A stretch of 64,000 nt of DNA, taken from positions 106,702,001 through 106,766,000 of the forward strand of contig CM097884.1 of assembly GCA_044892505.1 (NCBI GenBank), written 5' to 3'. Origin of the DNA: Schmidtea nova (taxonomy: Eukaryota). Both the position numbers and the translations under genes were made by a program. Shown here piece by piece: positions 24,898-54,404 of this stretch. The notes below the pieces were generated by a model. The model was not told the origin of the DNA. It did not search any database and saw only the letters and a program-made list of their open reading frames with translations. How positions within the stretch are numbered: position 1 is the first letter of the stretch; every line of letters begins with the position of its first letter.

Positions 24898-26885
24898 AGC
24901 TTCTGTTCTTTGGATAGTATATATATATATCGGATTTTTGACTTTCCTTCCTTGGCATCTTCATGTCGTGTTTGACACTGGGAACAAATCATACTTTTTA
25001 ATCTTGATAGCCCATCTGCATTCGAATGTTGTTCACCTTTCCGATATTTTAGTTCAAAATCATATTCAGACAAGTTTGCTAACCATGTTTGAAACTGCGG
25101 ACTGATTGGTGTTTTTGTAGTGTTCATGAAAACCAATGCTTTGTGGTCGGTGCGAATTATGAATTTCTTTCCGTAAAGATATTCTCTAAAATGTATGACG
25201 TACTCATGTACAGCGAGCAGTTCTTTCCTGGTTACACAGTAACCCTTTTCATGTGATGTCATATGTCTCGAACCATATGCTATAACAGATTCTTCTCCAT
25301 CTTCTTTAATTTGGCTCAAAACTGCACCAATTGCTCCAAAGCTAGCGTCTGTGTCTAAGATAAATGTCCTATCTTCTCTTGGATAATCAAGGATAGGTGC
25401 CTCGCACAACCGTTCCTTTAGTGTTTGGAAACTCTCATTGCATTCTTTAGTCCAAATTATATCTTTATCGCATCCAGATGTTGCGGCATATAGTGGTTCT
25501 GCGATTCTGGCGTAGTCTTTAATAAATCTTCGATAATAGTTCGTTAATCCGAGAAACGATCTTAATTGCTTTGAACATTTTGGTATTTCTGCTTTCTCGA
25601 TCTCTTCAACTTTCTTTCTGTTTGTCTGGATACCCTTCTCGTTAACTGTGTGCCCAAGGAAACACAATTCTGTTTTATTGAATTCACATTTTTCTGGATT
25701 TATCTTCAATCCTGCCATTTGAATTCTTCTAAATATTTCCCCTAGTAGCTCATCGTGGTCTTTTTGACTTTTCCCATAAATCAAAATATCATCTAAATAA
25801 ACAACTACCCCTTTGAATAGCATTCCTTCTAGTACTTTGTGCATCAGTCTCTGGAATGTCGCAGGAGCTGTTGCTAGGCCAAACGGTAGTCTGTTAAAGC
25901 AAAATTGTCCTTCTCTTGTACTGAATGCAGTCATTTCTTGAATTTCTGGGGCCAACTCTACTTGATAGTACGCCTGGCCTAAATCAATTGACGAAAATAT
26001 TTTTGCATTCGCTAGACAGTCTAATAAGAATTTGGTATTAGGCATCGGAAATGATTCCTTTTCTGTTATGGCATTCAATCCACGATAGTCTACACACATC
26101 CTGATGGATCCATCTTCCTTCCCTACTATAACTAACGGGGCATTCCAAGGACTCTTGCAACACCGAATAACATTTGCTTTTATTAATTCTTTTATCAGTT
26201 CTTCAATCTTTTTCTCCATGTGCATTGGTTGACGTCGAGGATGTTGCATTATTGGGCCTCCTGTTATCCGCATCTCATGTCGAACTAAATTTGTAAATCC
26301 CAAATCAAATTTCGACGCCATAAATATTCCGCCGTATTTCCTGATCATTCCTTCAATGTCTTTATTATTTTCACTTGCCATCGCCATTAGTGCTTTATTT
26401 ATTCTTTCTTCATCAGTGTGGATTTTGTTTATGTATGAAGTTTCTATATTATTGATCTTCACTAACTTTACTCCAAACTCTTTCATTGTATCAATACCCC
26501 CTATGAATTCTGGCTTGATCTCTTTTACAACCACTACTGTGATAATTTTGGTCTTCTGATTCCATGTGGCTGATATATTCATATATTCCATTGCCTCTTC
26601 ACCTCCAGTTGAAAATACGCCGCATAATAATATAGTACTACGTTGAAGGTCTGGTTTGCCTATTCTCTCCCACAGATTCTTGCTCATGACTGTTACTGAC
26701 GCTCCAGAGTCCCATAACATATCTACTTCTGTATTATTCAACATTATTTTACTCCAACTTCTTCCATCCTTCGTCTGATACATCTCTTCTTCTGCCTCGT
26801 CTCTTCTTCGTTCATTTCTTCTTTCATAATTTATTGCCTTGACTCCACCGACGAAATGAAACCCATGGAGTCGCTGATGTTTTTT
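24834..26885 (-). CDS. Gypsy pol: protease, reverse transcriptase, RNase H
   Basis: LWDSGA, SPWNAP, CVDYR, LPFGL, YLDD, DTDAS, TDHKAL. The frame stays open upstream to the slippery site at ~26880. Confidence 0.93.
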   Translation of the reverse strand, partial: KKHQRLHGFHFVGGVKAINYERRNERRRDEAEEEMYQTKDGRSWSKIMLNNTEVDMLWDSGASVTVMSKNLWERIGKPDLQRSTILLCGVFSTGGEEAMEYMNISATWNQKTKIITVVVVKEIKPEFIGGIDTMKEFGVKLVKINNIETSYINKIHTDEERINKALMAMASENNKDIEGMIRKYGGIFMASKFDLGFTNLVRHEMRITGGPIMQHPRRQPMHMEKKIEELIKELIKANVIRCCKSPWNAPLVIVGKEDGSIRMCVDYRGLNAITEKESFPMPNTKFLLDCLANAKIFSSIDLGQAYYQVELAPEIQEMTAFSTREGQFCFNRLPFGLATAPATFQRLMHKVLEGMLFKGVVVYLDDILIYGKSQKDHDELLGEIFRRIQMAGLKINPEKCEFNKTELCFLGHTVNEKGIQTNRKKVEEIEKAEIPKCSKQLRSFLGLTNYYRRFIKDYARIAEPLYAATSGCDKDIIWTKECNESFQTLKERLCEAPILDYPREDRTFILDTDASFGAIGAVLSQIKEDGEESVIAYGSRHMTSHEKGYCVTRKELLAVHEYVIHFREYLYGKKFIIRTDHKALVFMNTTKTPISPQFQTWLANLSEYDFELKYRKGEQHSNADGLSRLKSMICSQCQTRHEDAKEGKSKIRYIYILSKEQKLWKKYWSNSRRTLGFKSYERY

Positions 26886-28144
26886 CCGTCTTCTCTCAAT
26901 GTAGTATATTTTTCAGGAACATTGTATCTATCTTCCATATCGCTGTGAGCCATTCTGAAATCTTGGCTGTTTTCGGTGTAATCTCTTCTTTCAGATTTGG
27001 AATCTTCTTCTTCTATGCACGCTATTCTTTAATATCGACGGGGCACCTCTTTCCGTAACGAAAAACAATCTCGGAATCCGTGTCCCTCTTTACCACATAT
27101 CAGGCATTTATTTCCCAGTGGGCACTCATATCTTTTGTGTCCCCTTTCGCCACAGCAAAAACAATCACCTACTGTTAATTTTGGAGCCGGTGCTTGTGGT
27201 AGTCCTCTACTTTCGTTATAGATCCTTCTTGCTATATTCTTCATGGAAATTGTTGGCAGTTTCCTTTCTGAGCCATCTTGGATTCTAACATTTCTCAAAA
27301 ATTGTTCTTTTGGGAATTGTTCTCGTCGACCGCGGTTATTTTCTTCGAATTGTATCGGATGTTCATCTCTTCTTGGTCTGTGATGACTAAATGGGTCTTC
27401 TGATTGTCTTCTTTGTGATGGTGTAGGTCTGGTATCTTGAGTATTCTGTTGAATTCTCATTTGCCCTCCATCAATCACGCTGGCATATGTTCTTTTACCA
27501 ATTGATTTAATAAATTCAGTTTTATTGCTTCCCTTTTGGTTACTCTCAAAAATCTTCGCCAATGATCTCGTTTCTTCAATTTTTGTTTCTGGTTTTGTCA
27601 ATAATATTTCCCTCAATCTCGCATCACGTGCTTTATTTGCGATGAGATCTTGAACAATATCTTCTTCTGATCGTCCTGAATTTATAACTTCAGCTAAAGC
27701 TTTCCTTAATCGAATCTCGAAAGCTGCAAAACGTTGATCATCTTCCTGTTCCAGAACTGCCAATTCTCTGATTTTGTCAGTTATTGACTTCGTAATTGTG
27801 AAAGTATTTAGGAACCAAGTTTTGGCTTTCACATCTGTTGTTTCTGTTTCTCTGACGTTTCCCCACAATGTCTTAGCTTCTGCCACTAATAACAAATCGA
27901 AGGTGCTTGTCAATCGCTGTCCATTTGTCAACAGCCATTCTTCTATGTCTCTGATCCATTCTTCTGCTTCTTTCGATCCTCGTCCATCATATCGTCTGAT
28001 ATTCAGAGTGAGCATATCTTGGCATGATTTTGGTAGGCATTCCATTAACGTCTTTGTTGATTTCGAAACTGCATTGACATTCTGATTTTCGGCGTGGTCG
28101 CCAGTTAAATCAAACTCGGTTTTAAAAGACTGAACTTCCTTCAT
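26831..28144 (-). CDS. Gypsy gag with two CCHC knuckles; in-frame TAA at 27029
   Basis: CFCCGERGHKRYEC and CLICGKEGHGFRDC. The frame continues past the TAA (RIACIEEED...GKNISDSMG...RQ*). Confidence 0.85.
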
Positions 28145-29759
28145 AGATTTATTTAATTAAAATTTTATAAAAAGTGCCAAAATACTCAATTATTAAAACA
28201 CCAGTTAATTTAAATATCCAACTGATGTTATAATAAATTAAAAGATTTTTATAAAAATACACTTTATATTTATATAATCCTAAAATCCATAATTGATTCA
28301 GCGAAAATTAACCCAAATAAACCTAAAAAATCCTTTTTGCAAATCATAACATCCATTTCATTCATTAGTAACATTCATATATAATACTAAATAAAAATCC
28401 ATTCATTTCTCAACACACGCACTACATTGTTTCAATTATTAACATCTACCAGCATCAAACACCCATAAAATACACACCCAAAATTCATTTGATAACATGT
28501 GTCTGCATCATACATCCAGAAAATCTCACAAGCACTCATCCAATCTCACCCACCACTAAATTACTTGTTTTCATCCAGCATTCAATTCAACATACAGACA
28601 CATACAATAACATATAATCACATACAATCTCCTTGCAACTATCACCATGAAAATTCATAATAAACCTGTAAAAGTAACACAACATACAAACTCGAAATTA
28701 TAGCATCCCACATCATACATAAACATGCATACCTCCAACAAGACAATGCCAAAGTTTCATTCATTCAACAACCACAAAACATCATATTCATTTTATTATT
28801 TATTTTTATATTATAAAATAAGTCAAAAACTTCCGGTAAAAATCAGAACCAACACCCACAAAAAACAAAAACGATATTTATTTTTATTCAAAAATTTCAG
28901 TTAAAATAAAGTCAATAATTAACTATTAGTCTTTATTATAAAGTAAATTAAGCTTTCACATAAAATCAATAATCACGAACAATGGTTATTTTTATTATAA
29001 AGAGAATAAAAATTGTTTATCGATCAACGTTGCGCAAATACCGAGGAAAACTGATTGTCTGAGGAGTGAATGAGAAATCTCAAAATAAATTCCACTCAAA
29101 AACAGAAATTTGTGACGAACTATTAAAGGATTTCTTCGGAAAATGCCGGATCCTATTACTGATAATCCTGTTCACTTGTATTCTCATGGCTCTGACCTTT
29201 ATAGTTTTAGTTGATGAGAAGTGAAAAGATGCTTTCTGAATTCCGGTATTCAATTGGGAGGATATTGGCATAATATTTAAACAATTCATTTAAATATATT
29301 CCGATAGAAATCAATAGCTGATACTTAGTAGGAAGATTCGTAAATGTTTTATCGATTCAGATATTCCTTTAGAATTAGATAACTCTATTGGCAGCTTAGG
29401 ATTGACATTGAATAGTGAAATTGATTGGAACCATTGATCCCAGCTTCCGTGTTCAGATGCTATGAAAGTAATTAATTTCAGATTATCGATTTGAATTAAT
29501 AAATTTACTTATTTTTGCCAATAAATGAGCTTTCATAGAGAATTGGAGCAGCATTCAAATTTCCTAAAGGTTAAATAAAAGTTTAAACAAATGGAATATT
29601 AATAGAAATTTAAAGCAAGAAAATTATTTCAAGATATAAAAATAGGGAAAAACCTAAAGTAGAAATAAAATTATTTTCGTAAATTAAAAATTAAAGTTTT
29701 TATTTTATTTTAAATATGGGATAAAATTTTATTTTAGAATGCTTTAATTAACAATTACC

Positions 29760-35715: not shown

Positions 35716-35869
35716 AAAATTATGTAGATAACTGAATTAATTTATTAATGTACCCCGCCCTACCAAAAGTCTCCAGTCAGACAGTTATTTGCATATTGCA
35801 GTTTATAATGAACAGCACTGGAAACAAATGTCACAAACACACACGAATACTGAATGTCTGTAGTGCTGA

Positions 35870-36703: not shown

Positions 36704-37841
36704 TGTTGAGGTTCCAAATATTTGCTATTTGCAATCTCAACTTGTTATTGGGGTGATTCTTATATAAATATCAAAAGCAAAGTTTGTTTTTCAAAATTTT
36801 ATTAATACAATAAAATTACTTTTTATTTCGTTTACAATTGTCTACGAATAACTCAAATTCTTTATTACACAAATTTAAAAAGAAAAAGTCGTATCAAATC
36901 AATTCTTGCAATTGAACCTATTGGGTGACTGTTATGTAGTGCGTGCTATATTTAATTGTGGATCCAATGTTTCTGATCCGGGTTTTAATAAGTTTTTCAA
37001 GATTGCCTTGAAAACTCAATTTGCGCTAATTTTAAATCTTGATTTTACACTAGATTTTAAAGCTAGGATTTTTTTGGGCCTCTTTACTGATTTTTTCTTT
37101 AGTTTATATAGTAAAATTTGGTATGGATAAATAATTTAATTTCCGGTCTGATATTAAAATATTATTAAATTTAGTTTTCAATTTATTCTATACTCTGCGA
37201 TTAAAATAATTATATTTCAATTTCCGTTCTTGTCGTGATATTAAAATTTTCAATTTATTCTATACTCTGCGATATAATTATATTTTAATTTCCGGTCTTG
37301 TCACGATATCAAAATTTCCAAATTATTTCGTATTCTGTGATATTAAAATATTATTTAGATTTGATTATTTTTAAACAACTGAATTAAATTATTTTATTTA
37401 TTGATCTGTTTGTTTTATATGTATATACAACTCATAAAATAATAAAAGGAATAAAATACACATCAAGATAAAAGGAATAAAATACACATCAAGATACACC
37501 TATTTTATATGTACATGCAAATCATAAACTACACATCAAGATATATTAAAAGAAAACAATTGTTTGTTGAGAAATGTCACAATAATAAAATGTCACAATC
37601 ATATTAATTTTCTTGATTTCTGTGATGGGAGTTGCAATCTTTGTTGAGAAATGTCACAATAATAAAATGTCACAATCATATTAATTTTCTTGATGGGAGT
37701 TGCAATCTTTGTTGTGTGGCTTGGATTGGTATTCTGTGTATTGGGATTCCGCGTAAATGTTGATCCTATAGCTGTTAGGCCCTGTCCTATAATATTTATT
37801 TAGGACAAATGCTTGGATGGGCTTCCCTCGATCATCCAACA
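36704..37841 (-). repeat. 3' LTR of the large Gypsy element
   Basis: TGTTG...CAACA; same length as 49332-50469 with no mismatch seen by eye. PPT GGGAGGAA adjacent (37842-37849). Confidence 0.95.
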
Positions 37842-39651
37842 TTCCTCCCAGGGCCGTCAAGGTAATGTCCTCATTACCTTTTTCACTCAGGACCATTTCA
37901 ATTTCTTTATCCTTTAATTTCATTATTGTTCTCTTGAATCCTTTCTTGATTGCCAGATTTAGGGTATCATCTTCCTCAATTCGTCTTCCGAAATGGGTAC
38001 ATAATTGTTTTTCCGTTATCTCTTTTTGGTCGGCACTTATAATGAAGCTAGGTTCTTCCTCCTCTTCTATTTCCATTTCAATGTCTGGTTCTGGTCCTAA
38101 TTCGTCTTCTGCTTTTATTTTACTCTCCATTTCTTTTGTGAAGTCTTCTTCGTCGTCTTCCTCAACTGAAAAATACTCTTCGTCCGAATCTAAATCGCAT
38201 ATGTCTTCTCTTTCTTTGTATTTTTGTATTAGTTGCGGTTCGTTTTTGATCATTATTTGATTTTCTGGTGGTCCTTCTTCTTTTGTAATCATTAGGTCGT
38301 CATCACCATCTTCATGTATTGTTTCTTCCATATCTGAATTTTCATCCATTATTATACTTTCTTCTTCGCTTTCCTTCAACTCTTCCATACATGATTTTCT
38401 GTTTTGCATCTGGTATAGGTCTCCTTTCATTTCGATATCGTCTGTTATTGGTGTATCACTTTGTAACGATGTTGAATCTGCTGAATTCCATTTTATTATA
38501 GGTTCCCATTTGTCTTCTACTATTCCATATATTACCTTTAATATTGTTGTTGTCTTTCTGGCAGAAAATGGCTCACTTTCTACTAATGCTTAATTCAGTC
38601 TCTTATCTTTGTACCATCTCTTATGGTATTTAATCACTTGGTAAGCTAAGTTAGATAGCTTAATTTTGAGTGGATCCACGTTTTTCACGAATGAGCACAT
38701 AAATTTATCTCCGGCCATTTCTCTCATTCCTGCAATGTTGTCTAGACCAAATGTTAGCATTTTTAATTTATCTATCATATCAAATCCTATGATTATTTTT
38801 CCCCACAACAGCTCTCTAATATCCCATAGAGCCTGGTACTCATCTTCATTTCCGACGATACTTTCTTTATTAACCATTGTTTTTTCTGTGCAGAAGTTTT
38901 TTATCTTCGTTCTTGGGGTTATCTTTTTGTTGTATATAATTTCACCGTTGTATTTTCTTATACATACTTCTACTGGTCGCTTGTTGTCATTTTTATCAAT
39001 TGCAAATTTTGCATCCAAGAACATAATTAGTTGGTGTCTCTCTTCTGTGGATAATTCATTGTGTGTGAAAGAGATTTTTTCATTTATCCAGCTTTGATCG
39101 TACCAAGGTTTTGAAGGGATTGGCGGCATTGATTGGAATGGATTTGATATCAGAGGGATATAGAGAATCTCGATTCCTATGACACACGGTAAGTTGTTCA
39201 TTTGGATTATGAGGTGATTAAAATCGTCTGGCATACTTCTGTTGTTTGTAATTGTTTTGATGATGATTGAACAATTACTTGTTGTGATTATTGGTACTTT
39301 ATGTTGGCAAATTGATACCTCGGTTTTTGTCATGTGGAATAGGATTCTATGTGGTACCTTTTTTCCTTCGATTACCGCTTTGTCGACATTAAGATGTTTT
39401 TCAAATGTGCCGATTAGGTCTTTTAATTTTGTTCGTCGAGCTTCATTAAATTTGATAATGTGTAGTTCTCTTTCTTCAATTTCCACTTTCATATCATTTG
39501 GGATGCATACTTGGTTTGGGAAGCTTCTGATTGTGATTGGATTTCCATCGGTACATATTTTGTTTTGTAGGGTTTTGTAAAAGTTTAGAGGGTGTTTGTT
39601 GATCATAGCCACATAGTTCATAGATCGAGAATAATTTGGCTCTGATTGCAT
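37681..39651 (-). CDS. ORF2 accessory protein (~656 aa if the TAA at 38590 is bypassed): unknown N-domain, degenerate DEDDh exonuclease fold, acidic tract, C-terminus in the 3' LTR
   Basis: The 502-aa and 249-aa ORFs share a frame and are joined by 53 open codons after a single TAA. Motif spacing parallels REX4/ISG20. The likely start is MQSEPNY at 39651. Confidence 0.7.
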
Positions 39652-40030
39652 TGTTAATTGAAGATACAAGAATCGGGATATTGATTGACAATAAAACACT
39701 AAGAATCGGGATATCGACTGATAAGTTAGTAAACGATAAAACACTAAGAATATAGATTGATAATGAGATCGAGATATGATTTTACGACTTGATTTGTGAT
39801 TGGATTGAAAATTGGAACGATTTGATTGGGAGTTGGTTTGATTGTTTTGATTGTGCTGAGGATTTGATGTAAAACTGGCTTTATTGGGTTGTTTGCCAAA
39901 TGGGTGACTTGTTTTTCTAAAAATAAAATGTAAATTTTTATGTTGAGAGCGTATTTCAGGTTTAACCTTATACGCTATTTTATAGATACAGATATATGTG
40001 ATTTTAATATATATTATTGACCAATTTAAC

Positions 40031-40240
40031 TTATACCAATGTAGACCTCGAATATTCACCTGGTATATATTTACCCAAATGGAAATGCCCTGGTACATTT
40101 CTGACCAGTTGGCTCCGATACCGCTGCCTTTTCCATTTGTACTTTTTATAAACTTGTACGCTAGTTATTAAAGCTAAAACTGCTAATGCTATTATTGATG
40201 TTGTGATGACATAAAAAGGCCAATGTGGATTTTTATCTTT
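40031..40240 (-). CDS. In-frame extension of the polyprotein beyond the TAA: TM helix, basic stop-transfer, tail ending STLV
   Basis: *KDKNPHWPFYVITTSIIALAVLALITSVQVYKKYKWKRQRYRSQLVRNVPGHFHLGKYIPGEYSRSTLV*. Confidence 0.7.
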   Translation of the reverse strand, partial: KDKNPHWPFYVITTSIIALAVLALITSVQVYKKYKWKRQRYRSQLVRNVPGHFHLGKYIPGEYSRSTLV

Positions 40241-43200
40241 TTAACGAAATGCTTGTAGTTCCTCTAAGTTATGTATCACTATTGGTCTTCCTTGCCTTAT
40301 TTTGATAGGTTCTTGTTTTTGTTTTTTGGCATTGTATTGTTTTTGGAGTTTGGCTATTCCAGTGCTTGTTGGTATTTCGTTTGTATGTAGTGTGGTATTT
40401 AGTCTATTATTTGATGTCGTTGTTGTGCTTTTTGTTATGTTTTGGTTTTTTATTATATCCTTGGGTAATTGTTCTGTTTTTATCTCTTTGCATCTCCATG
40501 TTGTTGTATCTGTGTTTCTCTGTATGCAGATTTTATATATTGTATTAGGTGTTAGTTTTGTGAAATTAATATAGTTTCCTCTTTCAATTTCGTTGGTTGT
40601 TCTGTCGTCCTTTCCTTTTATCATCTTTGGGTTTTTTCCATTCGTTGTTTGCATGTATAAATCAATTACTCCTCTATTTATGATAAATGCTCTAACTTCG
40701 TTTGTTGATATTTTTATTAATACTCTGTCAAATTCTATTGTTTCGGTTGAGCCAACAATTGTTATGATTGTTAAGAAGATAGCTGATATTATTAGTTTGT
40801 TATGAGATCTTAGATTATACTTGTGAGGTTTATCTATCGTGACCTCGGCTTCCGCCAACTTGCATCTGTTGACATGTACTACTATTGGATCCTCGTTTTT
40901 ATGCTTTTGTAAATGTAAATTCTCATTTATTACTTTTACTACTTCATATGGACCTTTATATGGTCTTGCTAATTTTGTTGTCTTTCCCTTTCCTACTTGT
41001 GGTGACATAAGTCTAACCTTATCACCTACTTTAAAGTTGTGTGGTTTACTATTTTTGTCGTAGTCGGCTTTGTATTGTTCTTGTCTATATTTGACTTTTA
41101 GATTGGCTACTTTATACACTTCTTGCAGTTTTTCCTGCATTAGTGTGACATAATCTGGTGCATCCAAATATTGTGATACTCGAGGTTCAAATATTGTATC
41201 TATTGGTGTTGCTGGTTCTCTTAAAAACATTAAATAATACGGCGAATACCCTGTTGTTTCGTTTGGAGTGATATTATGAATGTATGTGCATTGACTTATG
41301 TATTCGTCCCAATCATTTTGATTTTTTCCTACAAAAACAGCTAGTCTGCTTAGTAATGTCCCATTAAATCTTTCTACTAGTCCATCAGTTTGAGGGTGAT
41401 ACGCTGTTGTGTTGATCTTTTGCATGTTAAAAATATTAGCTACTCGTTTTATTAATTCACTAGTAAAATTTGTTCCTTTATCTGTTAATAATCTTTTGGG
41501 TGTGCCTATCTTGAAAATAATTTTTTCTATAAGCAATTTAGCAACTGTTTCTGCTGTTTCGTCTTTTGTTGGAAATGCTTCTGCCCATCTAGTAAAATAA
41601 TCACTAAATACTAGTATATGTTTATTCCCATTAATTGTAGTAGGTAATTTACATAGAAAATCCATTGCACATAGTTCCATTGGTGATGTTGTTGCTGGAA
41701 TGGGGTGTAACGGCGCTTTTGTTTTTGTACCTGTATTTTTTCTTGTTGCACATATTGTACACGCGTTACACCATCTCTTAACATCTTTCTTTAGTTCTTC
41801 CCAGTAATATTTTTGTAATAATCTACTTGCTGTCTTTCTAGATGATAAGTGACCTCCTAATGCTCCATCGTGATATTGTAGTAGGAGTATTTGTCTTAAT
41901 TTCTGAGGTACTACTATTAATTGCTTACCGTTGAAATCTTCTATTACTACTAATTTCTTTGATATTTTATATTTTGAATTGTTTTCTTTTCTGATTTCAT
42001 TCCTTATTCTATTGATCTCTGGGTCTTTCATCTGTTCCTCATATATATCTATTGGCTTTTCTGCTACTAGTGCAAATATTTCAAGTGCTCCTAATTCTGG
42101 TATTCTTGATAGTGCATCTGCGTTTTTATTTATTCTACCTGGTTTATATATAATTTTTAGGTGCATGTCTTGTATTTTCATTGCCCATTTAAGTAATCTA
42201 CTTGATGTATCTTTATGTTTCCATAAGCCTTCTAATGGTTTATGGTCTGTTCTTATTATCACTTCAGTTCCGTAGATGTATGGTTTGAATTGTTTTAGGG
42301 CAAATACTATTGCGTAACATTCTTTTTCTATTGTTGAATACCTCAGCTGTGCTCCTTTTAATGTTTTACTGGCATATGCTATTACGTAATCTTTCCCTTT
42401 CTCTTCTTCTTGGCCTAATACTGCTCCTACGGCTTTCCCGCTGGCATCTGTCATTACTATAAATTGTTTTTCGAAATTTGGGTATCTTAACACTGGTGCT
42501 GTTATCAATCTTTCTTTTAGTTTGTCGAATGCTTCTTGATGTTCTTTTGTCCATTTCTTTTGTATCTTGTTAACTTTATTGTTAATTTCTTGTACTATTA
42601 ACACGTCTTTGCATTCTCCTTTTGTTTTAATTCCCTTTGTTAGTTCTATTATAGGTGTTGCTATCTTTGCATAATCTTGTATGAATTTACGATAGTATCC
42701 TGTTAAACCTAAAAACCCTTGTACCTGTTGTACTGTTTTTGGTATTGGGAATTTCTTTACAACTTCTATTTTTTCTGGATTTGGTTTTATCCCTTCTACT
42801 GTGACTATATGCCCTAAAAATAGTGCCGAAGACTCTGCCCACTTACATTTGGTTGGTTTAATTTTTATCCTTGCTTTTCTTAGTCTCTCAAGTACGTTTG
42901 TTATATCTTTTAGATGTTCCTCGAATGTCTTTGATGATATTAATATGTCATCCATGTAAACTGCGCAGTGTTGTACATTTACTAATATTGTGTTCATTAG
43001 ACGTTGAAATGTGGCTGGCGCATTAGTTAATCCGAAGGGTAATCGTGTGTACTCATATAAACCATCCTCAATAACAAATGCTGTTTTTTCTGCGTCCCCT
43101 TCTTCCATTTGAATTTGCATATACCCCTTATTCGCATCAATGACTGAAAAATACTTAGCATCCCTAAGTTTATCATATTGCTCTTGTGCTTTTGGGAATG

Positions 43201-46200
43201 GATATGAATCTTTTACTGTTACATCATTTAATTTACGATAGTCAATGCACATTCTTATTTCTCCGTCTTTCTTTTTGACGGGTACAATGGGTGATGCCCA
43301 CTGTGAAAAACTTTGTTTTATTACACCTGCGTCTTTTAATTCTTTAATTTGTCGCTTTATCTCCTCTCTTAGTTTGTATGGTACGCTATATGGTCTTTGT
43401 TTTATTGGTCTTGCATTGCCCGTATCTATTACATGTTTGATTATGTCAGTATCTCCTAAATCAAATTCATGTTTTGCAAAAACATCGCTGTATTCATCTA
43501 TTAGTGTCTGTAATTGTGCTTGTTGTGTTATTGTTAGGTATTTATTATTGATTTTCACTTTGTCGTATGATTTTATACTATTTGTCTTACTAGGTTCGAC
43601 CACTCTTTTGCCGTTATCATTTATCACACTTGTCTCGCTGACTTCATACGTTTTCTCTAATTTGCCTTTGAATAGTTTTCCCAATTTTGTGCCTTTGTGT
43701 ATTTTTATATTACATTTTTCATAATTCGCTATTCTTAATGGGATTATTCCCTTTTTTGGAATTACGCATTCATTAGTTAACATTATATTTTGTGTAATTG
43801 CCGTTTCTGGCTCGAAAATAAAAGTGTCCTCACTTTTGACGTTAACTTTTATGGGGATTATATGATCACACTCATATTCTAGTTCGAATGCTTCTAATGC
43901 AACAACTTCCGTGAACTTGGACTTATGTTTGATAGCTTTTCTTTTAATCGTGTTATCCGTTAAGTCTATGATGCAGTTATTCAGCTTGTTGAGTATATCG
44001 ATCCCTAGTATACATATGCTATTGCATTCTTGTACTACTTTAAATATGTGGTGTATTACTTGTTCTGATGTTTCAACTACTAATTCAATATCTCCTTTTA
44101 GTGGAATGTAGTGTGCTGATAGTGTTACTACTTTATCCGTTGTTTTCATAATATTTCTCTTTTCACCATCTGTAAGTTGATCTTCCCTAATTAGGGACGT
44201 TGCTGCTCCAGTATCTACTAGTGCATTTATGATTATATTGTTTATAATTATTTTAAGTCTTGGCCTTGCTTCGTTTGCTGTCTCTAATTGCTCCATCATT
44301 TCGACTTCCAAGCTATAACAACCATATATTTTTTTGGGTTCACAGTAACAATTCTTACTTTCTCTAGGAATTTTAATCTCTATATTTTCTTGTAACTCTT
44401 TTAATTGTTCTCTTTGGTTTTCATATAGTCCTTGTTGTGGTGCATTTCCTTCATGTGATATATGCGTTTTAACTATTTCCTCATTGTTTTCATCATCTAT
44501 CAATATTTGCCTTTCTTCATTCCTTTGGATTTTTATTAAACGTATTTCTTTATCATGTTTTGCCGTAATCAGGTATTTGGCTACAAACGGGCATAAACAT
44601 GCTAGTAATTTATATGAATTTCCGAATACTTGTTTCAGCTGTCGTAGTGATACTAAAGAAGAACAAACCATTTTTAGTAAAGCAACCGTATAATAAATTC
44701 CTAAAATTGTAGAGAACATGTTTCCAAGGACTGCAAAATATCCCCATATACTATATAATACTTTGTATGCTACTTTTTTGAAATACTCTTTTGATAACAA
44801 CACGTCAAAATTGTAATTTCCTCCGTAACTTCCTTCGATAATTTTGTTTACCATTATTGACAGTATTCTTTCTTTTTCGTTTGAAAATAACATGTGTTTT
44901 CTTGCACTTTCTATAGCTTCTCTCGTATATATGCCATTGCTATATATATCGTTGATTTCTTTAAACTCCAATCTTTTTTCAAGCTCTATGAGTTCTAATT
45001 TGAGTGGTTTCATCGCCTCTTTCCTATCTGACATAGATATCCACATTTCGTCATTTATTTTGTATAATGGATCCAATAAATTAGTGCATTTTTCTATTTT
45101 TCTTGGTACATATGTTTTTTCTGTTAGTATTCTAGTAATTGGTTGAAGGTATACCCTTTCTCCTTTGTATATTACTGGTAACTCATTTGTGCACTGATTG
45201 TTTGTTGCCAATGATACACTAACAGGTTTGCATTGAAATGTCTGTATCACTTCTCCTACTATCCTGGCAAATGTTCCTTCTTCTGAGAAGATTATTGGTG
45301 CCATCAAATCTGGGTTTGTTACCGCGACTGCCATTTTTGTCCTTAATATTTCTCTGTTGAGTTTGCAATCGCTCATGATTGTTGATTGATATACTTTATC
45401 TAATTGCACTAGTTGATTATGATAGAAAAAATCTATTTTATTGTTGAAATATGATGCGAGTTTGACGTCGAATTTATTTACTTTTTGTTTTGCATCTTTG
45501 ACTTCTTCTTTGCTTATGTATATCCCTTCATAATTAGTTTGTATTATTTCCTTACCACATTTTACACTTTTCCTTTTACTAACAAACCTCATTGCTTCGT
45601 TTTCAGATTCTGACATATATATTGTTGGTGTATCTTTTTCTTGTACAATTGTTGTTTTCCTTTTTTGATCTCTCACCCTTTTTGAGTCTACTTCTGTGAA
45701 CTGTTTTCCCTTGATTTCCCTAAATTTTAATGATTTTAATTTTGTTAACTGACAATCATATTTATCTATTTTGTATATTAGCATTGATTCTCCTGTATCG
45801 CAATAAGATTCTTCTAATGTACAAAATTTGTATATCATCATTTTCTTTGAGCTGCTGTCGAATGATGCTTTGAACTTTCTCAGTTCTACCATGTAGTGTC
45901 TCCTTACTACAACATTACTCAGTTTTTCGCCCCATATTGTATATTCTCCTCCTTCACAATATCCTCCTTTTGATGTCCATCCCACGACATTTACATCTTG
46001 TCTCATTTTTGCCCCTATCCTTGCTTCTAATTCTATTCCATTATGACCGCTATATTTTACTTTTTTTGTTTTAAATGCATCTTCACACTCTATTGGTGAC
46101 AATATTACTGCTTCGGGTGTCCACGTAGGTTTTAACACTGTTCTTGCCCCAACATGACATATATATGCTTCCTCCTGATACTTTACTATGCACTCTTTGG

Positions 46201-49090
46201 CCTCTGTATGAATAAAGTCTGATTCTTGATAAACATGGAATATTTGAGGCTCTGACATGATTAATTTAGTTGGATTTGCTTCAGGGCAATTTTCAACATC
46301 TAACAGTGAGTATTTTTGTCCCCACTTTGGATTTTGACAATCATATGCTACCATTGCATTGCCTCCCTTGATTAAATCTAATAACAAAGTGATAATGACT
46401 ATTACTATGGAGGTTATCGATTTACTCTCTGTCTTTGGTTTTACTGTTGCTTTCTTTATTAATTGTTTTATTACCTCATCTGTATCACTCTCTTTATTCG
46501 TCGTATCTTTATCATATAATACTTTCCATCCTCCTTTCTTTTTTATCCATGGTATTGCCTCTACTTTCAATCTTTTAAACATTATTGTTGCTACTTTTTC
46601 TAATTGCTCTTTTGGATTTTCCTTTATGAGCTTTTTATATCTTGCGGCCAAGTATGCCATGGCCGTTATTATTTTATCTTTATCTATCCCTGTATTAAAC
46701 ATGATTTTTAACACTGTTTTTTCATTTGCTTCCTCTGTAGCTAGTTCTTTAGTATCCTTTTTAATTAACATCATCCTTTCAGTTATATTTTCAATAAGTA
46801 CTGTTGGCTTTGTTTCTGGAAATAGCTTAATATTCATTGCTTTTATTACTTCTTTTATTTTGTTTACGTCATTATTATCGTCTTGATACTCTGGTTGTTC
46901 ATGTTTATGTTGATTTGCAATCTCTCTTAATCGTTCTGCTGTCTTCCTATTCTCCGATTTTTCTATTATTTCTGATTTTCGAGGTCTTCCTCTACCTCGT
47001 TTTGATATTTCTGCATCTTTTGTTTTTGCTTCCTCAGCTATTCTTTCTATTGTTTCTTGTAAGTTACTATACTTTTCATCTATAGGTTTAAATATAATTT
47101 CTTCATCCATTACTGATTTCTTTGTTTCGCTAGGTGATTTATCCCATAGCCTAAATAATCTATCAAAATCGTTTTCTTCATTTATACTCAACTCAACCGA
47201 CGGTACTGGCGTCATTATTTCATTGATCATTTGTTTTTCTACTGTGGCTACCACAATATTATCACTTACTGGGTTTATCCCATAATCGATTAAGTACTCG
47301 TCACTTAATAATTCTATTCCGTTAAAATATAATTTTATTACATCTTTCTCTCCTATGGTTCCTGGCCATTTGGCTCTTACCATTCGTTTTAATTTGCTCA
47401 CTTTAGTGCAAGTATGCATCTTTTGTTTAATACTAAAAAAATAATTATCATTTGATTCAATCGTTACATTTAGTGTTTCATGCAATTTTTCATTTTTTCT
47501 TATATATTCTCCATAACATTTCAACATCTCTTTTATTTCTATTTCTAATTCAAATACTCTCGTTACATTTTGTCTCTTTACCATCATTGGTATCAAATTT
47601 CTAAGCTTGTCTAATTCAATCCCATTAACTTGTATTTTATTGATTATTCTCAGTGTTTCGTTATCCTCAAATGGTTGTTTATACAATATCTCTTTAAATT
47701 CTTCTATCAATTCTTTTTGTTTATTTTCTTCTGTGAGAAATATTTCATCTGCTTCTCTAATTTCTTTTAACTCATCATTATCGATATCTACTTCATTTGT
47801 AAAAGTACTAAATTCATTTATAGACATTTCAAGCTTTCTCTCAATAAGTCTTCCATATTGCGTTTTAAATTCTTTTAATTCTTCTCTTAATATGTTTATT
47901 TCTTTATTTGCTGATTCAAGCTCAGCGCTATTTACCTGCTTTATCTCAGGCTCATTTTTAAATCTTACTCTTATCGGTGAATCTGCTCGTGGTTTATTAT
48001 ATACCTTTGCTAGGTGACCATACTTTTGGCAATTGTAACATTTTATTTGTCCATTAAAATTCACTTTATCCCTACCATCATTATTATAAGTATTTCGCCT
48101 CACTGGGCTATCTTGTCTATTTCTCGAATTATCTCTGTATCTATTATCTCTTCTATTATATTCGAAGCGACTGTCTCTATTATTTCTATTATATCCACTG
48201 TAACTGTTATAACCAGAGCGATTATCTCTAAAATTATTATCTCTGTCAAAACGGTTGTCTCTAAAACTATCTCTATTATTATTCCCTTTATAGTTATCTT
48301 TAAAATTATCTCTATTTCTATTATCAAAATTTTTATTTCCTGGACTGTTAAACCTTCCCTTGTTTTCAGGTGATTGGCTTCTATTAGGACTAAATTTTCT
48401 TCTATTATTAACAAAATTCAAATATAATTGTTTCATTTCTTCCGAAGGGATACTATCATCTTTACTTTTCAACTCAGGTTTTACCTCAAGTTGCTTTTCA
48501 ATTTCTACAGCGTCTATCTCTGGTCTAAATCGATCTCTTTGTATTGCTTCTATGCGTTTTGCTTTTTGTACTAATTCATTTAAGTCTTCATATTCAATCG
48601 TAATTAATGCTTTGTATAAATATTTTTGGATTCCGTTCCAAAACTGATCCTCGATTAACCTACTAGTGTGATCTCCTGCACCAAATGCCTTTTTTGCTAA
48701 TTCTGTTATCGTGTATATATATTCACCTACTGATTCTCTTGCTCCTTGGTATCTACTTCTAAATTTTTGAACATTTATTTTTTGTAAGTCTCTATCTATT
48801 ACTATTTCTTTTCTAAGGTTTGTAACTAACTCTTGATAATTAATGCCTTTACATGCCAAATTATTGTATGCTTGTAATGCGTATCCTTTTAAGTATAATG
48901 GGATTCGTTGTTTTAATTCATTTGTTTTCCATCCGCAAGCCTCTGCGTATTGTGCGATTTCGGCAAAAAAGTCGTCGAACTTTTCAGGGTCTCCTTTATA
49001 TGATTCTATTGGTAGTGTTTTTATAAAATTATGACTGTTTCCTATGTTATCGTTATTACTGTTGTTACTACTGCTTGTACTATTACTCAT
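40241..49090 (-). CDS. 2949-aa polyprotein: Gag - Ubl - AT-hook - Bcl-2-like - envelope glycoprotein - PR - RT - RH - IN - FN3
   Basis: Gag N-terminus (YKGDPEKFDDFF..GW), CYNC..GH, LYFNG..L.DYGI, RGRGRPRK, WIKKKGGW, AYDC..Cys-rich..TM, LVDTGA, YMDD, TDAS, HHCC, DDE, GPY, LTPNTIYKICI. Confidence 0.95.
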   Translation of the reverse strand: MSNSTSSSNNSNNDNIGNSHNFIKTLPIESYKGDPEKFDDFFAEIAQYAEACGWKTNELKQRIPLYLKGYALQAYNNLACKGINYQELVTNLRKEIVIDRDLQKINVQKFRSRYQGARESVGEYIYTITELAKKAFGAGDHTSRLIEDQFWNGIQKYLYKALITIEYEDLNELVQKAKRIEAIQRDRFRPEIDAVEIEKQLEVKPELKSKDDSIPSEEMKQLYLNFVNNRRKFSPNRSQSPENKGRFNSPGNKNFDNRNRDNFKDNYKGNNNRDSFRDNRFDRDNNFRDNRSGYNSYSGYNRNNRDSRFEYNRRDNRYRDNSRNRQDSPVRRNTYNNDGRDKVNFNGQIKCYNCQKYGHLAKVYNKPRADSPIRVRFKNEPEIKQVNSAELESANKEINILREELKEFKTQYGRLIERKLEMSINEFSTFTNEVDIDNDELKEIREADEIFLTEENKQKELIEEFKEILYKQPFEDNETLRIINKIQVNGIELDKLRNLIPMMVKRQNVTRVFELEIEIKEMLKCYGEYIRKNEKLHETLNVTIESNDNYFFSIKQKMHTCTKVSKLKRMVRAKWPGTIGEKDVIKLYFNGIELLSDEYLIDYGINPVSDNIVVATVEKQMINEIMTPVPSVELSINEENDFDRLFRLWDKSPSETKKSVMDEEIIFKPIDEKYSNLQETIERIAEEAKTKDAEISKRGRGRPRKSEIIEKSENRKTAERLREIANQHKHEQPEYQDDNNDVNKIKEVIKAMNIKLFPETKPTVLIENITERMMLIKKDTKELATEEANEKTVLKIMFNTGIDKDKIITAMAYLAARYKKLIKENPKEQLEKVATIMFKRLKVEAIPWIKKKGGWKVLYDKDTTNKESDTDEVIKQLIKKATVKPKTESKSITSIVIVIITLLLDLIKGGNAMVAYDCQNPKWGQKYSLLDVENCPEANPTKLIMSEPQIFHVYQESDFIHTEAKECIVKYQEEAYICHVGARTVLKPTWTPEAVILSPIECEDAFKTKKVKYSGHNGIELEARIGAKMRQDVNVVGWTSKGGYCEGGEYTIWGEKLSNVVVRRHYMVELRKFKASFDSSSKKMMIYKFCTLEESYCDTGESMLIYKIDKYDCQLTKLKSLKFREIKGKQFTEVDSKRVRDQKRKTTIVQEKDTPTIYMSESENEAMRFVSKRKSVKCGKEIIQTNYEGIYISKEEVKDAKQKVNKFDVKLASYFNNKIDFFYHNQLVQLDKVYQSTIMSDCKLNREILRTKMAVAVTNPDLMAPIIFSEEGTFARIVGEVIQTFQCKPVSVSLATNNQCTNELPVIYKGERVYLQPITRILTEKTYVPRKIEKCTNLLDPLYKINDEMWISMSDRKEAMKPLKLELIELEKRLEFKEINDIYSNGIYTREAIESARKHMLFSNEKERILSIMVNKIIEGSYGGNYNFDVLLSKEYFKKVAYKVLYSIWGYFAVLGNMFSTILGIYYTVALLKMVCSSLVSLRQLKQVFGNSYKLLACLCPFVAKYLITAKHDKEIRLIKIQRNEERQILIDDENNEEIVKTHISHEGNAPQQGLYENQREQLKELQENIEIKIPRESKNCYCEPKKIYGCYSLEVEMMEQLETANEARPRLKIIINNIIINALVDTGAATSLIREDQLTDGEKRNIMKTTDKVVTLSAHYIPLKGDIELVVETSEQVIHHIFKVVQECNSICILGIDILNKLNNCIIDLTDNTIKRKAIKHKSKFTEVVALEAFELEYECDHIIPIKVNVKSEDTFIFEPETAITQNIMLTNECVIPKKGIIPLRIANYEKCNIKIHKGTKLGKLFKGKLEKTYEVSETSVINDNGKRVVEPSKTNSIKSYDKVKINNKYLTITQQAQLQTLIDEYSDVFAKHEFDLGDTDIIKHVIDTGNARPIKQRPYSVPYKLREEIKRQIKELKDAGVIKQSFSQWASPIVPVKKKDGEIRMCIDYRKLNDVTVKDSYPFPKAQEQYDKLRDAKYFSVIDANKGYMQIQMEEGDAEKTAFVIEDGLYEYTRLPFGLTNAPATFQRLMNTILVNVQHCAVYMDDILISSKTFEEHLKDITNVLERLRKARIKIKPTKCKWAESSALFLGHIVTVEGIKPNPEKIEVVKKFPIPKTVQQVQGFLGLTGYYRKFIQDYAKIATPIIELTKGIKTKGECKDVLIVQEINNKVNKIQKKWTKEHQEAFDKLKERLITAPVLRYPNFEKQFIVMTDASGKAVGAVLGQEEEKGKDYVIAYASKTLKGAQLRYSTIEKECYAIVFALKQFKPYIYGTEVIIRTDHKPLEGLWKHKDTSSRLLKWAMKIQDMHLKIIYKPGRINKNADALSRIPELGALEIFALVAEKPIDIYEEQMKDPEINRIRNEIRKENNSKYKISKKLVVIEDFNGKQLIVVPQKLRQILLLQYHDGALGGHLSSRKTASRLLQKYYWEELKKDVKRWCNACTICATRKNTGTKTKAPLHPIPATTSPMELCAMDFLCKLPTTINGNKHILVFSDYFTRWAEAFPTKDETAETVAKLLIEKIIFKIGTPKRLLTDKGTNFTSELIKRVANIFNMQKINTTAYHPQTDGLVERFNGTLLSRLAVFVGKNQNDWDEYISQCTYIHNITPNETTGYSPYYLMFLREPATPIDTIFEPRVSQYLDAPDYVTLMQEKLQEVYKVANLKVKYRQEQYKADYDKNSKPHNFKVGDKVRLMSPQVGKGKTTKLARPYKGPYEVVKVINENLHLQKHKNEDPIVVHVNRCKLAEAEVTIDKPHKYNLRSHNKLIISAIFLTIITIVGSTETIEFDRVLIKISTNEVRAFIINRGVIDLYMQTTNGKNPKMIKGKDDRTTNEIERGNYINFTKLTPNTIYKICIQRNTDTTTWRCKEIKTEQLPKDIIKNQNITKSTTTTSNNRLNTTLHTNEIPTSTGIAKLQKQYNAKKQKQEPIKIRQGRPIVIHNLEELQAFR

Positions 49091-49310
49091 GTTGTAGATT
49101 GTTCTATTTCTTAATTGATGTATTATTTCAGGTGCTGTATCTATGTTTATTTTATTAGCTTTTTAATGGTTTTAGTTCTTTATATGTTTGTATATCTTTG
49201 AATTTCTACTTTGGTCAATAATATTTAGATAAATATATTTTCCCGATATATATTACAATATCCCTCTGATCGCAATTCCTATCCCCCAATTGATATTATA
49301 ATATTTTATT

Positions 49311-49329
49311 GTCCCGGTTCGCGGCACCA
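49311..49329 (-). promoter_or_regulatory. Primer binding site TGGTGCCGCGAACCGGGAC
   Basis: 2 nt inside the 5' LTR boundary and complementary to a CCA-ended tRNA 3' end (Phe- or His-like; identity uncertain). Confidence 0.85.
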
Positions 49330-49331
49330 AA

Positions 49332-50469
49332 TGTTGAGGTTCCAAATATTTGCTATTTGCAATCTCAACTTGTTATTGGGGTGATTCTTATATAAATATC
49401 AAAAGCAAAGTTTGTTTTTCAAAATTTTATTAATACAATAAAATTACTTTTTATTTCGTTTACAATTGTCTACGAATAACTCAAATTCTTTATTACACAA
49501 ATTTAAAAAGAAAAAGTCGTATCAAATCAATTCTTGCAATTGAACCTATTGGGTGACTGTTATGTAGTGCGTGCTATATTTAATTGTGGATCCAATGTTT
49601 CTGATCCGGGTTTTAATAAGTTTTTCAAGATTGCCTTGAAAACTCAATTTGCGCTAATTTTAAATCTTGATTTTACACTAGATTTTAAAGCTAGGATTTT
49701 TTTGGGCCTCTTTACTGATTTTTTCTTTAGTTTATATAGTAAAATTTGGTATGGATAAATAATTTAATTTCCGGTCTGATATTAAAATATTATTAAATTT
49801 AGTTTTCAATTTATTCTATACTCTGCGATTAAAATAATTATATTTCAATTTCCGTTCTTGTCGTGATATTAAAATTTTCAATTTATTCTATACTCTGCGA
49901 TATAATTATATTTTAATTTCCGGTCTTGTCACGATATCAAAATTTCCAAATTATTTCGTATTCTGTGATATTAAAATATTATTTAGATTTGATTATTTTT
50001 AAACAACTGAATTAAATTATTTTATTTATTGATCTGTTTGTTTTATATGTATATACAACTCATAAAATAATAAAAGGAATAAAATACACATCAAGATAAA
50101 AGGAATAAAATACACATCAAGATACACCTATTTTATATGTACATGCAAATCATAAACTACACATCAAGATATATTAAAAGAAAACAATTGTTTGTTGAGA
50201 AATGTCACAATAATAAAATGTCACAATCATATTAATTTTCTTGATTTCTGTGATGGGAGTTGCAATCTTTGTTGAGAAATGTCACAATAATAAAATGTCA
50301 CAATCATATTAATTTTCTTGATGGGAGTTGCAATCTTTGTTGTGTGGCTTGGATTGGTATTCTGTGTATTGGGATTCCGCGTAAATGTTGATCCTATAGC
50401 TGTTAGGCCCTGTCCTATAATATTTATTTAGGACAAATGCTTGGATGGGCTTCCCTCGATCATCCAACA
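49332..50469 (-). repeat. 5' LTR of the large Gypsy element
   Basis: Matches the 3' LTR and is followed by the PBS. Confidence 0.95.
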
Positions 50470-50663: not shown

Positions 50664-51011
50664 ATTCTAAGAAAATGAAAATCCTTCATTAACATGACTC
50701 ACTGTTATCACGGTTGTGTGTCTGATGTGAGTAGTCATATTCTAAGAAAGTGACAATCCTTCATTAACATGACTCACTGTTATCACTGTTGTGTCTGGTG
50801 TGAGGGCGTGAGGGCGTGCGTGCGTACATGTGCGCATGTTGAAGGTGTTAGTGACATTTGTTCCCATTGCTGTTCATATTTGCACTGCAGACGTTCATTT
50901 TAAACTGCAATATGTAAATAACTGCCTGACTGGAGACTTTTGTTAGGCCGGGGTATATTGTTTCTTGATTTGTAATTGGAGTGAATTAATGTATTCGTGA
51001 AGTTATTAGGA

Positions 51012-53201: not shown

Positions 53202-54105
53202 AGTTACAATCTCTTCATAATTCATAACAATTTAACAAATTAAAATATATATTTTTAAAACAGTGCCAACTTGCTAATATTTAAACAAGGTTAATTATTG
53301 AACATCACTCTCCTCTTCATTTTCTTTGAATCTCTTCAGCCATTCAATTCTTCTTGATTTGATTGAGTTTGGAAATTGTAATTCAACTTGTCTTGGTGAT
53401 AAGAATTTTAAAATTTTGTAAGGTCCTTCATATTGGATTCCCTCCTTCTTTCGTCTATGTGGTTCCGAGCGAACTAATACTTTCTCTCCCACCGTGAAAA
53501 CTCGAGTACCCCGGTGTTCTAAATCTCTATTTTGCATTGTTGTAGCTGCTTTCTCTAGATTAGTTTTTGTTTTATCCACGATTTCTTCTTTGCTTTTTTG
53601 TATATGTCCTAATCTAGAATATAAATTAATCTTCCGACCATATACAATTTCAAAAGGTGAGAAATTTGTTGAGTTTTGTATTGTAGCATTCAAACTAAAT
53701 TCAATCTTCGGTAACAATCTGCACCAATTATTTTCTGTTCTAATCTCTGTCAATGATGTTGCCAACATGTCCCGAACTGTTCTTATGATTCGTTCTGCTA
53801 AACCATTTGATTGATGTTGATATGGTGAACTGAATTCTTGTTTTATACCAAATTTCTCCATCCAATCACGAAACATCGATCCTTCAAAAATTCTTCCTCT
53901 ATCTGTAAGAATGCTTTCTGGTCTACCAAAACGATATATCCAATTATTTAAAATGACATTCAAAATTGTTGATTCATCCTGCGTACTTGTTGCTGATAAG
54001 CTGACCAATTTACTAAAACGATCTATTATCACTATCACATATTTCTTACTTGCTTTTGTCTCCATATATGCAATATCCACTACTATCTGTTCTAAAAACC
54101 GTTCT
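53202..54105 (-). mobile_element. 5'-truncated relative of the compact Gypsy: integrase plus ~108-bp 3' LTR (53202-53309)
   Basis: Integrase similar to 23722-24897 (FLEQIV.D.AYME, QEFSSPYQHQSNGLAER), PPT AAGAGGAG, AGT...ACT LTR ends. Confidence 0.8.
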
Positions 54106-54118
54106 CCTGTACTACAGC

Positions 54119-54404
54119 CAACAAAATCACCAACATTTTTAATCAAACAGATTTGCCTATCCGTCCAACGTTCATAACCTCCGCACCGTTAAAATCACAA
54201 CTCCGAAAGCCACCAATTTCCAACATCTGCAAACATAAATGTCTTTGTCGTTCCACAACCCGATGCTTTTGCTTTTCCAAAAATATAGTATATAAACTTT
54301 CTTGCCAAAAATGTGACGCTACTTACATAGGAGAAACACATAGAACTTTTCGCACCCGACTTAATGAACACACTAAAATCAAAACCAGTTTGTGCACAAA
54401 ATAA
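54119..54404 (+). mobile_element. Penelope-like element fragment (GIY-YIG endonuclease)
   Basis: C..KNIVYKLSCQKCDATYIGETHRTFRTRLNEH; near-identical copy at 63760-64000. Confidence 0.88.

Follow-up and report, generated by a model that had tools for sequence, protein, structure and literature searches.

How might an envelope glycoprotein that is encoded in frame between Gag and the protease reach the lumen of the endoplasmic reticulum (ER), with its neighbours in the same chain remaining in the cytosol? This question is raised by a long terminal repeat (LTR) element of the Ty3/gypsy type in Schmidtea nova. The window, that is, the whole stretch of DNA that was analysed, comprises 64,000 nucleotides of GenBank assembly GCA_044892505.1 (contig CM097884.1, positions 106,702,001 to 106,766,000 of the forward strand), and the element occupies 13,766 bp on its minus strand (50469..36704). 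Its first open reading frame (ORF1) combines Gag, a cargo region, Env, Pol and a putative second glycoprotein, designated gp2. We propose, with a probability of about 0.72, that this polyprotein threads the ER twice, is cleaved by signal peptidase and the protease that it contains, and takes part in enveloped assembly at the ER.

An envelope segment in frame between Gag and the protease

The motifs quoted in a preliminary description of this DNA were all present on the minus strand, in one frame and where it had placed them. The hydrophobic stretch SITSIVIVIITLLL corresponds to residues 891-904 (nt 46420-46379) and AYDC to residues 915-918; CKLNREIL was located at residue 1242, GTFARIVGEV at residue 1272 and LVDTGA at residue 1624, and the quoted transmembrane (TM) stretch equals residues 1448-1472 (44749-44675). 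The position of env in frame between Gag and the protease was likewise borne out, as one ORF of 2,949 codons contains the Pfam matches in the order PF24664, protease (PR), reverse transcriptase (RT), RNase H (RH) and integrase (IN). In 9 of 20 copies fetched, ORF1 is 3,024-3,038 residues long. Approximately 470 residues of cargo with SUMO/ubiquitin-like, AT-hook-like and Bcl-2-like parts separate Gag from env, and about 125 residues lie between the Env TM anchor and the protease. As a side observation, two or three protease-like motifs were seen in relatives P0001-P0007, P0013, P0015 and P0022 vs. one in this element; in the relatives they follow the env tail, precede RT and in some cases also follow the integrase.

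The Pfam family PF24664 (Monjiviricetes_fusion) spans residues 896-1556 with an E value of 1.3e-87 (295 bits vs. a cut-off of 27). An AlphaFold2 model of env built from 13 sequences had a predicted local distance difference test score (pLDDT) of 69 and a predicted template modelling score (pTM) of 0.43, and revealed a 48-residue helix and long beta-hairpins. Foldseek matched the model to the G protein of a chu-like virus (E 3.6e-33) and to gB of herpes simplex virus 1 (HSV-1; E 1.4e-12), with a herpes gB in every listed PDB row. Judged by the fold likeness of this model, Env is a class III fusogen of the chuvirus/gB type, as the preliminary description had supposed.

The ectodomain measures about 535 residues, shorter than the ~570 given earlier, and contains 14 Cys (2.6%). 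In all 11 complete ectodomains measured the length was 527-542 residues and the number of Cys exactly 14. No RxK/RR furin site was found in Env, and no furin motif in the nine relatives checked. A search of 1.84 billion representatives returned 1,124 env relatives at E≤0.001, the strongest being long chains or fragments (26-50% identity), followed by stand-alone glycoproteins of ~650 residues (22-27%). In all eight long homologues env is followed by a protease in one chain, and seven of these also contain RT.

Copies, selection and relatives of the element

The env segment has 550 candidate matches in the genome, among which 40 scored copies are 96-100% identical to it; the preliminary description had made its claim depend on presence in other copies and on class III similarity, and both were found. 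Frames of 3,050 codons or more hold 29 of 150 scored matches, and env and protease motifs share the longest ORF in 18 of 20 copies fetched. LTR identity reaches 99.6-100% in eight of ten other copies (one pair aligned over 751 bp only) and 92% in a ninth; for the tenth, no LTR pair was found. Copy L001 (C3:106678007-106687856) lies ~64 kb away, is 99.9% identical and is open at the position of the ORF1 stop; it lacks 312 nt at the start of the ORF match and no LTR pair was found.

We compared env with four intact copies from other subfamilies of the family and obtained a ratio of the proportions of nonsynonymous and synonymous differences (pN/pS) of 0.04-0.06. From these sequences we conclude that the family is active and maintained under purifying selection. 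Divergence along ORF1 is patchy between subfamilies, which points to recombination between them. Separately, the block at 45640-47290 (residues ~600-1150), which covers cargo, signal and the first half of env, shows a synonymous divergence of only 0.01-0.03 to another subfamily, vs. [quoted passage not shown]

The complete plan was also found in two other families of the genome, which have frames of 3,401 and 3,393 codons and ~29% identity in the env region. Between these two families pN/pS was 0.12 for env, 0.27 for the Bcl-2-like domain and 0.32 for the gp2 lumen, values that are uncorrected and have pS near saturation.

Predicted membrane topology of the polyprotein

Hydropathy scans revealed strong hydrophobic cores at residues 891-905 and 2765-2781 and an anchor at about 1460-1480. 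We scanned 159 stored proteins, 85 of which have an A/G-Y/F-D-C-type start after a hydrophobic stretch. Among the 24 proteins in which the signal is internal (three of them being distant proteins of ~860 residues with a different layout), 21 obey the (-3,-1) rule two residues before this start, against a background of 8.2%. The signal is N-terminal in 61 stand-alone glycoproteins, 43 of which obey the rule in the same register. By this shared register, the internal stretch resembles a normal signal peptide of a glycoprotein, retained within a longer chain. ER threading by an internal cleavable signal and a stop-transfer helix is a well supported prediction; the cytosolic placement of Gag and Pol, suggested in the preliminary description, would follow this topology and agrees with hydropathy and motif conservation.

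Polyproteins of flaviviruses and hepaciviruses contain internal signals and signal-peptidase cuts, and their capsid is anchored by the signal of the next protein. The earlier label "flavivirus-like" is apt for the processing mode predicted here and for that only. It implies no kinship, the fusogen being of class III vs. class II and the element a reverse-transcribing, integrating one with Ty3/gypsy enzymes.

In the sequence of events that we propose, Gag and the SUMO-like and Bcl-2-like cargo would be made in the cytosol. Signal 1 would then start translocation, be cut after residue 912 and stay on the Gag-cargo product as its C-terminal anchor. The Bcl-2-like domain would thereby be tail-anchored, and the unmyristoylated Gag, the N-terminus of which has no Gly2, would be tethered to the ER. 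The 14-Cys ectodomain would fold and trimerise in the lumen, with the TM helix stopping transfer, and PR, RT, RH and IN would emerge in the cytosol, joined to the Env tail until cut off by the protease. Signal 2 would re-enter the lumen and give gp2, a second type I glycoprotein with one or more fibronectin type III (FN3)/immunoglobulin (Ig)-like domains, a stalk, an anchor and a basic tail. Such threading would bring all parts together at a single membrane, from which enveloped particles would bud before passing between host cells. Of this scheme, the sequences show the open frame, the order of the domains, the class III fold likeness of Env, the conservation and the purifying selection; translocation, cleavage, budding and spread are inferred.

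A predicted second glycoprotein after the integrase

The preliminary description overlooked two features: a predicted second membrane glycoprotein after the integrase, and a Bcl-2-like domain for which the env signal would act as tail anchor. As for the first, signal 2, a luminal segment and a final anchor are present in seven of the eight relatives whose integrase is complete (P0008, misplaced by the anchor pattern, is among the seven), and also in both other families of the genome. The luminal part contains 2-12 sequons in relatives. An FN3-type loop motif is present in gp2 of this element and in 6 of 8 full-length relatives; it is absent from the two other genome families.

A single-sequence model of gp2 (pLDDT 57) gave by VIA Z values of 8.9-8.0 to Ig-like/FN3 folds, with a best root mean square deviation (rmsd) of 2.5 Å over 84 residues; the ESM Atlas value of 0.85 is a lead only. 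The models suggest that the gp2 lumen is likely a beta-sandwich, and its assignment to FN3 specifically is a lead.

Bcl-2-like and other cargo upstream of Env

The Pfam family PF00452, below its cut-off in this copy, passes it in some other copies of the family. Aligned with Bcl-xL, the Bcl-2-like domain gave gap-free, weak matches over 69-74 residues (E 0.3-2); its BH2-like motif is clear, BH1 is degenerate and NWGR is not kept. Six of the 15 relatives scanned have the BH2-like motif 35-100 residues upstream of the env signal, which would accordingly provide the Bcl-2-like domain with a tail anchor; the motif also precedes env in the two other families of this genome. A search of the ESM Atlas with the SUMO-like/Bcl-2 region gave no usable match. 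The cargo further contains RGRGRPRK, which we take to be AT-hook-like. A helical and ubiquitin-like module before the Bcl-2-like domain seems to be duplicated in P0003, L051 and L053.

Weighing the proposed doubly threaded polyprotein and its alternatives

Several observations weigh against double threading of the ER. The topology was obtained from Kyte-Doolittle scans and the motif register only, and the register was fixed after inspection of the first 11 sequences, which moreover belong to a mutually related set. A conserved second hydrophobic helix (1.0-1.7) follows the Env TM. This helix (residues 1492-1510) is probably membrane-associated and not spanning; if it did span, Pol would face the lumen, which is the main topological doubt.

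Other points concern the two glycoproteins themselves. The env model is mediocre, with a TM-score to gB of ~0.3 and an rmsd of 13-16 Å; therefore the domain folds agree, but their arrangement is unreliable. The env ectodomain contains no N-glycosylation sequon vs. 2.8 expected from composition, and each of nine relatives has 1-2, below expectation in all nine. This shortage means that glycosylation is no positive sign of a luminal position, and as a proof of luminal Env it fails. For gp2, P0007 lacks signal 2 and the anchor after the integrase, and no sequence likeness of the gp2 tail was found across relatives. Within the family, gp2 pN/pS is ~0.6, on few changes. Its fold is weakly backed by Foldseek, the rows of which were nearly all FN3, with a best E of 0.008 and none at E≤0.001.

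As ORF1 is one frame, equal synthesis of its parts is expected. What a single ORF can set is at most the proportion in which its parts are synthesised, and the Gag:Env:Pol ratio in particles is probably adjusted afterwards. Since the Gag output of retroelements usually exceeds that of Pol, a spliced or internally started message, or recoding, might instead supply excess Gag or a stand-alone Env and leave the threaded polyprotein as a minor product. ORF1 does contain 15 slippery-type heptamers, each reaching a -1-frame stop within 36 codons, but such heptamers are expected in A/T-rich DNA. Met913 stands at the start of env, yet it lies downstream of the hydrophobic signal, which a product started there would lack. 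No acceptor-like site was printed by a scan of residues 780-900, ORF1 has no 2A motif, and single-ORF elements, e.g., Tf1, can tune ratios by degradation. In contigs from four runs of unrecorded kind, one of 15 joints listed out of 27 skips the whole of env (43428-48036), at low depth and with no splice-type ends; we read it as a deleted genomic copy, and such contigs cannot show that splicing is absent. We consider this route of expression unlikely.

Env and gp2 might also be made as predicted and serve, with no extracellular step, as membrane scaffolds for intracellular assembly or in direct cell-cell fusion, in which case the element would spread like any ordinary retrotransposon. An Env with neither sequon nor furin site, and with only putatively functional fusion loops, would suit such a role, and for most such elements the mechanism of transmission is stated to be unknown (PMC13524379). 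However, class III fusogens do not need a furin cut, and strong purifying selection acts over the whole ectodomain, with the Cys count invariant at 14; the furin site is not always conserved (PMC13524379). A role of this kind appears decidedly improbable to us, and enveloped particles formed from the doubly threaded polyprotein remain the reading that we prefer. The odd gene order, and that only, might suggest that a viral insert was captured recently and is carried passively, or that Env owes its place to an accident of assembly or recombination; we rejected this as next to impossible given the pN/pS of env far below 1, the copies with env in frame with the protease and the same place of env in three genome families and in distant relatives.

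The element, its insertion site and neighbouring features

The element has TG...CA LTRs, a primer-binding site, a purine-rich tract and a 4-bp target duplication (TGAG, flanking it on both sides), all as in Ty3/gypsy elements. Its Pol order is PR-RT-RH-IN by Pfam, and the best PDB match of the family profile is Ty3 Gag-Pol (E 9e-171), far above the matches to foamy virus and retroviruses. The element is a recently inserted, multi-copy Ty3/gypsy retroelement. Positions of its features are collected in Table 1.

Table 1. Features of the element and their positions in the window
Feature	Position	Strand	Basis or remark
5' LTR	49332..50469	-	1,138 bp, TG...CA ends, identical to 3' LTR
Primer-binding site	49312..49329	-	starts TGGTGCC, 2 nt past 5' LTR; same in other copies
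ORF1, single Gag-cargo-Env-Pol-gp2 polyprotein	40241..49090	-	2,949 codons; stop-free from Gag to integrase
Gag, residues 1 to ~420	47831..49090	-	zf-CCHC E 6.7e-4 (knuckle at residues 349-362); Retrotrans_gag E 0.053
SUMO/ubiquitin-like domain, residues 543-606	47273..47464	-	PF11976 E 0.012, below cut-off; module found in relatives
AT-hook-like motif RGRGRPRK	46976-46999	-	cargo region; similar motifs by eye in several relatives
Bcl-2-like domain, residues ~787-855	46526..46732	-	PF00452 E 2.2e-5 (residues 790-855), below cut-off
Putative internal signal sequence 1, residues 891-912	46355..46420	-	hydropathy 2.7-3.3; predicted signal-peptidase cut after G-N-A912
Class III (chuvirus G/herpes gB-type) ectodomain, residues 913-1447	44750..46354	-	Pfam, models, selection
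Env membrane-proximal region and predicted TM anchor, residues 1448-1482	44645..44749	-	best 19-mer hydropathy 1.78; 1.79-2.40 in 12 relatives
Weaker Cys/Pro-containing hydrophobic helix, residues 1492-1510	44561..44617	-	19-mer 1.24; 1.01-1.66 in 12 relatives
Aspartic protease, DTGA, residues 1607-1704	43979..44272	-	RVP E 1.6e-6
RT (YMDD) and RNase H, residues 1938-2308	42167..43279	-	Pfam
Integrase (H2C2, DDE core, C-terminal domain), residues 2394-2744	40859..41911	-	Pfam
Putative internal signal sequence 2, residues 2765-2781	40748..40798	-	hydropathy 2.9-3.0
gp2 predicted luminal beta-sandwich, FN3/Ig-like, then Thr-rich stalk	40451..40747	-	single-sequence model; 3 sequons in luminal part
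Premature stop (40241-40243) removing gp2 anchor, and frame beyond	40034..40243	-	frame beyond codes TM and basic tail; other copies open
Accessory ORF2, ISG20/REX4-like exonuclease-fold region and acidic tail	37681..40098	-	~800-870 residues in other copies
3' LTR	36704..37841	-	purine-rich tract precedes

The accessory ORF2 is broken in this copy by a premature stop (38590-38592) and gave no Pfam match. Its likeness to ISG20L2/ISG20 is weak (E 0.015-0.017, with only 66-71 residues aligned), and in the ISG20-like alignment the ExoII aspartate column holds Lys, for which reason the exonuclease-like region may be inactive. This part has a pN/pS of 0.28. ORFs for DEDD-type exonucleases occur in rotifer LTR elements (PMC5408684). 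In P0023, two stretches upstream of env resemble by eye the exonuclease-like part of ORF2, which suggests that such a cargo can sit inside the polyprotein.

The element lies within a DDE_3 (Tc1-like) DNA transposon, the transposase frame of which is split by the insertion; the 67-nt inverted repeats (35747-35813 and 50893-50959) enclose 1,443 bp when the element is discounted. A second Ty3/gypsy element at 23722-28156 (-) has PR-RT-RH (24834-26912) and IN (23722-24960) in different frames and an upstream frame of 375 codons with no Pfam match; no env match was found in these frames. Other frames of the window with Pfam matches are a DDE_1 transposase (20566-21483, -), an integrase fragment (53295-54188, -) and a galactosyltransferase (PF01762, 57712-58776, +). 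Elsewhere in the genome a frame of ~399 codons with a BIR domain is highly repeated (150 scored of 1,295 candidates) and is probably an accessory gene of another mobile family.

Relation to known elements

The layout of the element resembles that of flatworm elements. The preliminary description presented the in-frame arrangement as a novelty, which it is not: it was reported in 2019 for Burro, and GAG-ENV-POL elements are catalogued among errantiviruses. The planarian Burro/GYPSM1 contains Gag with CCHC, PF11976, a BCL2-like domain, an in-frame env and PR-RT-RH-IN in one polyprotein; its env matches mononegavirus fusion glycoproteins and was called the first in-frame env between gag and pol (Arkhipova & Yushenova 2019, PMC6431247). 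The present element shares with it the SUMO-like PF11976 and BCL2-like domains before an in-frame env, both Pfam matches being below cut-off in this copy and supported by relatives. Burro differs in its size of more than 30 kb with an ORF1 of 4,873-5,140 residues, vs. 13.8 kb and 2,949-3,038 residues here (PMC6431247). The accessible part of that account, figure aside, does not mention ER topology or a membrane protein after the integrase. BIR, ankyrin, MATH and dUTPase-like domains gave no Pfam match in this element, the Burro study having used the more sensitive HHpred. We rejected membership in Burro proper, as the giant size is lacking; kinship was compared by description only.

The contrast with errantiviruses drawn in the preliminary description holds for the classical insect ones, the env of which is spliced, and fails for GAG-ENV-POL errantiviruses. 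In nematode NERVs, gag, env, pro and pol are said to form one continuous ORF. These elements (Sacco et al. 2022, J Gen Virol 103:1739) are cited as having the env/pol order flipped in an account of "ancient errantiviruses" of the GAG-ENV-POL, HSV/gB type in Nematoda, Bryozoa and Platyhelminthes (Chary & Hayashi, eLife 2026, PMC13524379). Six Schmidtea elements of 14.5-18 kb are listed there among the GAG-ENV-POL errantiviruses; gB-type errantiviruses are described as multi-copy and some ectodomains as "flanked by two transmembrane domains" (PMC13524379). Our element agrees with this group in its Ty3/gypsy Pol, its gB-type class III env and the place of env downstream of gag and upstream of pol; by eye, its env also has motifs in common with Smed_errantivirus_1 and _2 in their domain I-II rows. 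In the main text of that paper the terms polyprotein, frameshift, splic-, Burro, Bcl and fibronectin do not occur, and that text gives no processing model, cargo domains or second glycoprotein (PMC13524379).

Atlas virus (Belpaoviridae) encodes a single Gag-Pol-Env polyprotein of 2,828 residues with a class II fusogen (PMC9094657), and Anakin is an LTR element with a chuvirus-type glycoprotein (PMC7642597). The envelope of Atlas likewise lies within one polyprotein; unlike our element, both are Bel/Pao and not Ty3/gypsy, and have env after Pol. We conclude that the element belongs to the GAG-ENV-POL gB-type group, of which it is a compact representative, and has its cargo in common with Burro. 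As its layout has been published, it is not a discovery, and given this prior art we rejected "categorically new" as a description.

Implications

What remains new is the double-threading model and the predicted second glycoprotein. In the texts examined we found no description of ER threading or of a glycoprotein after the integrase in such elements, which does not establish absence from print. The element is useful as a compact and abundant example of its layout, and the fixed signal-peptidase register leads to checkable predictions, namely that N-termini should be created close to residues 913 and 2782. The entry of gB-type errantiviruses into cells in the absence of gD/gH/gL was left unexplained (PMC13524379). 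A candidate partner of the gB-type fusogen in entry is the conserved gp2, predicted to be a second membrane protein of type I and encoded in one chain with Env. Tentatively, and with more doubt than confidence, we suggest that elements of this kind may be enveloped invertebrate retroviruses whose two entry glycoproteins are cut from one doubly threaded chain. In this view gp2 would assist the gB-type fusogen in attachment or triggering, and the signal of env would double as the anchor of a Bcl-2 mimic and as a tether for Gag.

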